NCBI RefSeq assembly: GCF_000027125.1
Contig: NC_017626.1
DNA: 64,000 nucleotides
From: Escherichia coli 042
GTDB lineage: Bacteria > Pseudomonadota > Gammaproteobacteria > Enterobacterales > Enterobacteriaceae
Direction: 5' to 3' (one strand)
The position numbers were made by a program, and so were the translations under genes. Numbering within the stretch: the stretch's first letter is position 1; each line of letters begins with the position of its first letter. Positions 3,789-5,243 of the stretch are shown one piece after another. The notes beneath the pieces are model-generated. The model saw nothing but the letters and a program-made list of their open reading frames with translations, was not told the origin of the DNA and made no database searches.

Positions 3789-4886
3789 TTATACAAGGGG
3801 ACGATTCTCAATGGGACTATCCTCAGGGGAATTTTCCTCAGAGGAACTATCATCAAAGTCATCATCCATAGATGAAATACCATCGAATGGTGCCACGCCC
3901 GTGATTAGTTTTATTTTATTATTACGATCAGTCAAGACTCCATTTAAACCATTTTCGCTGACGGATTTTAATAATTTATCATAACTCTTATTGTCATCAG
4001 GCACATTAAAAACACACGGAGTATCAACATCAAACAATGACGTTCCCCAGTTCACATATTGAATATCATAGTTACTGAAGTTCTGTCCAGAAAAGAAGCA
4101 TCCCTTAAAATCCAATCCACGTAAATTATATAAACCACCCTCTTCTTTTGGGAGAGCAATTTTAATTCTGGCTATCTCCCAGACAAAATTGCCATTTTTG
4201 TATTTGAATACCGTTTCAAGCTCTCCTCCAGACAACTTGACTTCTGGAAATAATTTGAAATTAAACCCTACATTATTATGTGTCAACGTAGATGAACAAA
4301 AGATGGAAAAAGCTTGCAGTGCTGAATTATAGCTATCGATTTTATCTTGAGGCTGCGCTCTTGGTAAAAACTTATAGCAACACTCATAAAAATTAAGTAG
4401 AAACTCTGATGACCTTCCATTTTTATCAAATAATACCCGCTGAAAATGCTGCACAAACTTATTCGTTTTTTCTTGAATATCTATGGTGTGTTCCTTTGAC
4501 TCTAACAAAGATGAATCCTGTTGAAGTGCATTGCTCATCTGGTTGAGGAACAACTGCATTTCTTTCAACTTATCTCCATAGTGACCTTTAACTTGCTGAG
4601 AATTTTTAGTTACAGTTGAAACCTTATCTGTGTGGTTTTCATATAAATTATGTGATTCCATACAGTCATTTGGCGGCGTTTCTGAAATAACACTACGCGT
4701 TCTACCTGGCTGAAGTGAAGCAACATGAAAATCACTTTTTCTTATATTGCCGAATAGGGTCTGTTCATTTCTCTTAGCGCATTCAATAAACTGATCAACA
4801 TTATTTTTATTAGATGACAGGTTAATTTCAGAAACCGCATTTTCTTTGTTCTCCAGCTTTAGTTTAACGAGAAGGTCTTCCCACAC
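3789..4886 (-). CDS. Hypothetical protein, 365 aa from a GTG start; probably the distal part of one gene interrupted by an in-frame TAA
   Basis: Six-frame ORF in AT-rich DNA, same frame as ORF 4896..5243. No Shine-Dalgarno before the GTG. Position corresponds to the K-12 ypjC locus (recollection). Confidence 0.5.
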   Translation of the reverse strand: MWEDLLVKLKLENKENAVSEINLSSNKNNVDQFIECAKRNEQTLFGNIRKSDFHVASLQPGRTRSVISETPPNDCMESHNLYENHTDKVSTVTKNSQQVKGHYGDKLKEMQLFLNQMSNALQQDSSLLESKEHTIDIQEKTNKFVQHFQRVLFDKNGRSSEFLLNFYECCYKFLPRAQPQDKIDSYNSALQAFSIFCSSTLTHNNVGFNFKLFPEVKLSGGELETVFKYKNGNFVWEIARIKIALPKEEGGLYNLRGLDFKGCFFSGQNFSNYDIQYVNWGTSLFDVDTPCVFNVPDDNKSYDKLLKSVSENGLNGVLTDRNNKIKLITGVAPFDGISSMDDDFDDSSSEENSPEDSPIENRPLV

Positions 4887-4895
4887 CGTTTTTTT

Positions 4896-5243
4896 TTAAA
4901 ATACTACGTCAGGCTCACCATCAGCAACTAACTCTTGATTATTATCAAAGTGTACGTTGTGTACTTTTAATTTATTTTCATTAGCATCATATTTAATACG
5001 TTTTAATTGTTCTCCGGCTCCCATAATGACAAAAGCATTGCCTTCATGATATTTACATTCAGACATCATTTTTTGTAAAATTTCAAGAGCACCGTTATAC
5101 GTCCCTGAGGCAGCTTCTTTACAAATTAATTTTATAATACCATAAGCTAGTAACTCCATGGATTTAGAAGATTTTCTTTCATTACAATTTCCACTATTTA
5201 TAAATGTGCTAGTGTTAATTTCGTTGCTTTTACTAACTAACAT
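4896..5243 (-). CDS. Hypothetical protein, 115 aa; proximal part of the same split reading frame
   Basis: ATG at 5243 preceded by GAGGA with 7-nt spacing. Ends at a TAA embedded in an A9 run (plus-strand T9 at 4889-4897). Confidence 0.5.
   Translation of the reverse strand: MLVSKSNEINTSTFINSGNCNERKSSKSMELLAYGIIKLICKEAASGTYNGALEILQKMMSECKYHEGNAFVIMGAGEQLKRIKYDANENKLKVHNVHFDNNQELVADGEPDVVF

Follow-up and report, generated by a model that had tools for sequence, protein, structure and literature searches.

A split ypjCB frame in Escherichia coli 042 and its very probable origin in a recent nonsense mutation at a homopolymer junction

Two adjacent open reading frames (ORFs) on the minus strand of the Escherichia coli 042 chromosome share a frame and are parted by a stop codon that is built into a run of nine adenines. 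An arrangement of this kind raises the question of whether the two ORFs are the remains of a single gene that a nonsense change has inactivated, a translationally coupled pair, or a locus whose coding state depends on the varying length of a homopolymer, these being the three possibilities put forward in a preliminary description of the sequence. The stretch of DNA considered here, 64,000 nucleotides of contig NC_017626.1, is referred to as the window, and all coordinates are positions within it.

The interrupted frame and its identity

The ORF calls and their translation show that the minus strand reads from 5243 to 3789 as a single frame of 484 sense codons plus a terminal stop, with one of these codons replaced by an internal TAA at 4898..4896. 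The 5′ fragment (4896..5243) comprises 115 codons from its ATG and ends at this premature stop; the 3′ fragment (3789..4886) comprises 365 codons from a GTG that lies 9 nt past the TAA. Only TAA AAA AAA ACG separates the two ORFs and the frame is identical on either side. At the junction the coding strand of the window reads GTA GTA TTT TAA AAA AAA ACG GTG, forming a T4A9 tract (4889..4901, minus strand) in which the four T's occupy 4901..4898 and the nine A's 4897..4889, such that both A's of the TAA open the A9 run. A Shine-Dalgarno sequence, GAGGA (5251..5255, minus strand), can be read 7 nt ahead of the ATG at 5243..5241; none is present in the window sequence upstream of the GTG at 4886. 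The C-terminus is acidic (DDDFDDSSSEENSPEDSPIE). On all of these points the preliminary description was accurate, having reported two ORFs in a common frame with a TAA inside a 9-A run, a good Shine-Dalgarno sequence before the upstream part and none before the GTG, and an acidic C-terminus; it was also right that a shift alone would be unable to fuse the two parts, as these already share a frame.

No protein family had been recognised at that stage, a position that is now superseded. Profile matches identify the interval 3789..5243 as ypjCB, an accessory gene of E. coli that corresponds to ypjC together with ypjB of K-12. With the stop read as leucine, the repaired protein scores 928.6 bits against the NCBIfam profile NF050179 (‘YpjCB family protein’), for which the cut-off is 650 bits, with residues 1-484 aligned to profile positions 1-465. 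Since the joined frame matches full-length YpjCB from end to end, the two-ORF split is no chance juxtaposition. Two Pfam families are found in the same frame of the repaired protein, DUF5507 (PF17612) at residues 1-160 (1.4e-74) and DUF5508 (PF17621) at residues 234-484 (2.4e-136). The lengths of these models, 160 and 263, are those of the K-12 fragments that lie, respectively, before the K-12 stop and from the first in-frame methionine after it. Because of this equality, DUF5507 and DUF5508 each represent one half of the same protein and were defined from the broken K-12 copy, a point of some consequence for annotation.

A search of 5,426 complete genomes of E. coli matched a 1.9-kb region containing the gene in 3,173, in which it is labelled ypjCB, ‘YpjCB family protein’ or ‘DUF5507 domain-containing protein’. 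Orthologues are mostly single ORFs of 484, 491 or 492 aa, and the family is limited to E. coli and Shigella-type sequences. Gene order is kept across the locus and comprises an alpha-amylase-family gene, the tRNA(CAU) gene ileY, ypjCB, a recombinase remnant, the autotransporter gene ypjA and ssrA. The window copy retains the conserved position by ileY and ypjA and its frame is interrupted by the TAA at codon 116; it is a pseudogene member of the YpjCB family. The gene occupies an AT-rich islet bounded by ileY and ypjA, with 29-35% G+C compared with 53-57% in the flanking core genes, and binding of Hha to the corresponding region of K-12 has been reported (PMC2408971).

Several features of the neighbourhood can be recorded alongside. 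Upstream, the islet is marked by a neighbouring tRNA gene with a CAU anticodon (5995..6070, minus strand), detected by both ARAGORN and Rfam. ARAGORN assigns it to Met and RefSeq to tRNA-Ile (ileY, tRNA-Ile2), and the identical mis-annotation has been noted in another strain (PMC3032704). Beyond it, the alpha-amylase-family gene (6630..8882, plus strand) is an intact 750-aa ORF in the window and is likewise AT-rich, at 32-40% G+C; its K-12 counterpart carries a frameshift and an internal stop and is a pseudogene. On the other side of ypjCB, a remnant of an invertase-like recombinase is placed at approximately 3250..3560 (minus strand) by its position in related loci. It is overlapped on the opposite strand by a 122-aa ORF (3167..3535, plus strand), which is followed by a strong hairpin at 3617..3644. 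The ypjA/EhaD autotransporter adhesin gene (3..2855, minus strand) starts at 2855 and remains open for 951 codons up to the edge of the window; it is frameshifted in K-12.

Searches directed at function, structure and signals were also made. The PDB search gave no significant sequence relative of YpjCB, no PADLOC defence family matched it, and among the PHROGs it matches only one family, whose function is unknown. Besides two giant repeat proteins, an exhaustive representative search found E. coli/Shigella-type sequences and fragments only. The two giant proteins (P0164 and P0184) were rejected as homologues: their scores derive from 7-12 repeats, each of them weak (pairwise E about 1e-4 to 1e-3), and the repeats of P0164 are identical or near-identical to one another. 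The AF2 model of full-length YpjCB is poor (pLDDT 38.7). For the C-terminal 186 residues, one of five models reached a pLDDT of 62 and displays short strands spaced 4-5 residues. Foldseek comparisons of the models with the PDB returned nothing below E = 0.01, with TM-scores of 0.22 or less. An Rfam scan identified the tRNA only, and promoter-like sites are no commoner than in shuffled sequence.

The nonsense lesion and variation of the tract

At the site of the break, intact alleles read TTT TTA AAA AAA ACG (T5A8, encoding Phe-Leu-Lys-Lys-Thr), where the window reads TTT TAA AAA AAA ACG (T4A9). The T5A8 form is carried, for example, by the intact 484-aa alleles of Ecol_316 and Ch1 and, at the tract, by the nearest relative, O158:H23, the closest complete genome, which shows 3 differences per 1.9 kb and is 99.8% identical at the ypjCB locus. 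Alignment with intact alleles places the change at base 4897, where a T>A substitution converts Leu116 from TTA to TAA (4896..4898, minus strand). Leu116 is invariant across 20 full-length homologues and the repaired 484-aa protein is found exactly on 83 public contigs; the exact products of the window occur on six (115 aa) and four (365 aa). It is therefore very probable that ypjCB has been inactivated here by a single recent nonsense mutation, T>A at 4897, that turns Leu116 into a stop. The first of the three original possibilities is upheld by these results, and the cross-strain alignment proposed at the time finds a sense codon, TTA (Leu), in intact alleles and an A-run whose length varies among strains. 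RefSeq records with an identical TAA in this tract already label the gene a pseudogene with an ‘internal stop’, and the two ORFs of the window would properly be annotated together as a single pseudogene.

The substituted base lies where the T-run and the A-run meet, and the change extends the latter, which is the signature that would be expected of transient misalignment (‘dislocation’) during replication, as mutagenesis of this type predicts run-extending substitutions. A slippage route that passes through T5A9 to T4A9 may also be envisaged. A two-step route through T4A8 was considered and rejected, as there are no T4A8 alleles in 526 genomes, and a single substitution is preferred. The proposal that homopolymer length varies at this locus consequently holds in part: A7 and A9 variants do occur across strains, but the lesion of the window is substitution-like and leaves the total length of the tract equal.

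The extent of this variation was gauged from complete genomes in which the 36 and 32 nt flanking the tract are identical (n = 478). T5A8 is present in 463 of these exact-flank genomes (97%), T5A7 in nine, T4A9 in five from five countries, T5A9 in one and T4A8 in none. The T/A tract itself is limited to one allele family, represented by about 526-529 complete genomes, and non-tract alleles read TGT TTA AGC AAG CAG at the same site. Frameshift products are also encoded on public contigs, that of A7 on the window's own background on 205, and those on a second haplotype background, group b, on 27 (A9), 10 (A7) and one (T6A8). T4A9 resides on at least three haplotype backgrounds that are about 4% apart, having been found in the window, in a four-genome clone (82 substitutions/2.1 kb), in AST85 (89 substitutions) and on the mosaic contig L011. 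The nearest relative with an intact tract is only 3-4 changes away, the T>A among them, both for the window (O158:H23) and for group b (Ch1). Around the tract the haplotypes share 200-340 bp of identical sequence; elsewhere they are mosaic, including the 3′ third of the gene. From these patterns, the recurrence of T4A9 would be attributable either to short-patch recombination or to repeated mutation where the two runs meet. Because A's have been gained and lost there in other strains too, the tract is a mutational weak spot in a gene that is being lost from many E. coli lineages; since T5A8 is kept by 97% of the exact-flank genomes, it does not amount to a fast switch. The population-genetic point is a modest one, namely that the T5A8 junction of one allele family is a recurrent site of inactivation.

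Alternative readings of the split frame

A more dynamic interpretation of the same variation, which we consider improbable, is that T5A8 is a hypermutable, phase-variable contingency site at which slipped-strand mispairing turns ypjCB off and sometimes on; A7, A9 and T4A9 would then be OFF states, with the window caught in the last of these and locked there. In keeping with such a switch, tract length variants occur on several backgrounds (T5A7 and T5A9 in the nine and one complete genomes, and the predicted frameshift products on the contigs counted above), and the T/A tract is present in this allele family only. Length polymorphism of a coding homopolymer among close relatives, a property of contingency loci, is evident from the presence of A7, A8 and A9 on shared backgrounds. 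An OFF state that slippage can reverse is a further property of such loci, but T4A9 has the same total length as T5A8, differs from it by the substitution at 4897 and is not revertible by simple slippage. The predominance of T5A8 (463/478) also indicates that switching is rare at the population scale, many of the lesions that remove ypjCB lie outside the tract, as fits plain decay, and classical phase variation would require more frequent slippage than an 8-bp A-run undergoes in repair-proficient E. coli. If a switch did exist, it would be a slippage-type contingency switch in E. coli acting on a fast-evolving, ORF-maintained accessory protein that adjoins an adhesin gene. Transcriptional insertion of A's might then partly rescue the A7 state.

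Marginally less credible again is a functional split gene, the coupled pair of the preliminary description, in which the 365-aa part would be produced through termination-reinitiation at the GTG. This start is close to the stop, the RefSeq record of YZLc1-3 contains two separate CDSs, and the T4A9 clone of group b is widespread, with 191 contigs carrying its 115-aa product. A coupled pair should nevertheless keep its two-ORF arrangement in orthologues and have a start signal ahead of the second ORF. Here, the arrangement is rare and derived (5/478 exact-flank genomes), the GTG lacks a Shine-Dalgarno sequence, the break falls within the DUF5507 region and not at a domain border, and further RefSeq records that carry this exact tract allele are marked as pseudogenes. 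These observations lend no support to a coupled pair.

On the preferred reading of the locus as a nonsense pseudogene, translation from GAGGA-7 nt-ATG terminates after 115 residues, inside the DUF5507 region, and the remaining 368 codons would not be expressed as part of a functional protein. Re-initiation at the GTG would provide at most a little of an N-terminally truncated product. The 365-codon 3′ fragment is probably either untranslated or made by weak re-initiation only, and its treatment in RefSeq varies by record, as a separate CDS or as part of the pseudogene. Residual activity of either fragment, or low-level re-initiation at the GTG, may qualify the inactivation. Transcription of the 160-aa ypjC fragment of K-12 is reported to be induced in mixed biofilm and its deletion to cause a biofilm-colonisation phenotype (PMC3646849), so a truncated product or its transcript is perhaps not inert.

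It is very unlikely that the stop is an artefact of sequencing or assembly, with T5A8 miscalled as T4A9 at the homopolymer boundary, even though adjacent homopolymers are error-prone on some platforms and the nearest complete genome has T5A8. The assemblies of four independent sequencing runs (SRR12791976, ERR007650, ERR007507 and ERR007508) match the window with 100% identity over 1.2-2.9 kb, T4A9 included, and the five complete genomes with this tract allele come from five countries. Given this base-for-base agreement in four independent assemblies, the broken allele is both real and recent, and it derives from an intact gene.

Programmed recoding at a slippery T/A tract, by frameshift or readthrough to a full-length product, can be set aside as scarcely conceivable. 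The motifs UUU UAA and A AAA AAA could in principle be slippery, but past the stop both the +1 and the -1 frame close within 12-13 codons and so permit no frameshift product. The stop is not conserved, being missing from 97% of exact-flank alleles and present in 5/478, and its T precedes the A-run, such that transcriptional slippage within the run (PMC5574713) is unable to remove it.

Gene decay, selection and comparison with known systems

Loss of ypjCB has occurred by a variety of other lesions. In K-12, LD26-1 and strain 167 the frame is closed by a stop after residue 160. O158:H23 retains Leu116 and has undergone an independent frameshift in a near-identical background, the A6 run of codons 57-59 (5069..5074, minus strand, in the window) being reduced to A5. 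Strain 1190 is frameshifted by T5A9, CEC15 also carries a frameshift, and AST85 has an 11-bp deletion near the start of the gene in addition to the TAA. In UID2309220009, whose allele is without the T/A tract, Gln119 has independently become a stop (CAG>TAG) three codons from that of the window. The gene is interrupted by IS5 in MSI001 and truncated in W409. In an evenly spaced sample of the matched complete genomes, ypjCB was intact in three of nine.

Nei-Gojobori dN/dS values between alleles were 0.74-1.16 in nine of ten pairs and 0.49 for the closely related Ecol_316 and Ch1. When the 180 substitutions between window-type and O157 alleles were placed at random, a mean of 6.9 stops arose and stop-free outcomes were seen in 0.04% of trials; the rarity of this outcome (P about 0.0004) implies that the open frame has been maintained during fast evolution of the protein. 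Thus, ypjCB decays in many E. coli lineages, yet the allele comparisons show that an open frame has been selected for where it is intact. A frame clearly held open by selection in the presence of near-neutral dN/dS is characteristic of genes whose selection fluctuates or diversifies, and for that reason intact ypjCB may merit functional study. The finding in the window is in itself one of ordinary gene decay, a pseudogene made by a recent nonsense change at a mutation hotspot where two homopolymers join.

A possible likeness to the pentapeptide-repeat proteins (PF00805, e.g. Qnr) serves as a lead only. The best PDB sequence match of YpjCB, Qnr 3pss, is non-significant (E = 0.62) and covers exactly residues 377-406, which can be written as the six five-residue units LDFKG CFFSG QNFSN YDIQY VNWGT SLFDV. 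In comparison with PF00805, this segment would form at most 1.5 turns, with no Pfam pentapeptide match at E <= 10 and no significant fold match.

In common with the contingency loci of Neisseria, Haemophilus and Campylobacter, the ypjCB tract is a coding homopolymer that varies in length among related strains and thereby determines the reading frame. It departs from these slipped-strand systems in that the intact length predominates (97%), the lesion of the window is a substitution, and unrelated lesions also remove the gene.

The closest parallels are found within E. coli. The ypjC/ypjB locus of K-12 (b2650/b2649; now the ypjCB pseudogene) resembles the window in the gene, its chromosomal position and its division into two ORFs by an in-frame stop. 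It differs in the location of that stop, after residue 160, and in being 27 codons shorter overall; its allele family shares about 79% amino-acid and 89% nucleotide identity with the window and has no T/A homopolymer at the site. The RefSeq ypjCB genes of EC17CM6, ESBLEC_MG32, Ec-U3, YZLc1-3 and AST85 possess a T4A9 tract and codon-116 TAA identical to those of the window on backgrounds that are 82-89 substitutions/2.1 kb away from it. The gene, its family and this lesion are thus already annotated in public E. coli genomes.
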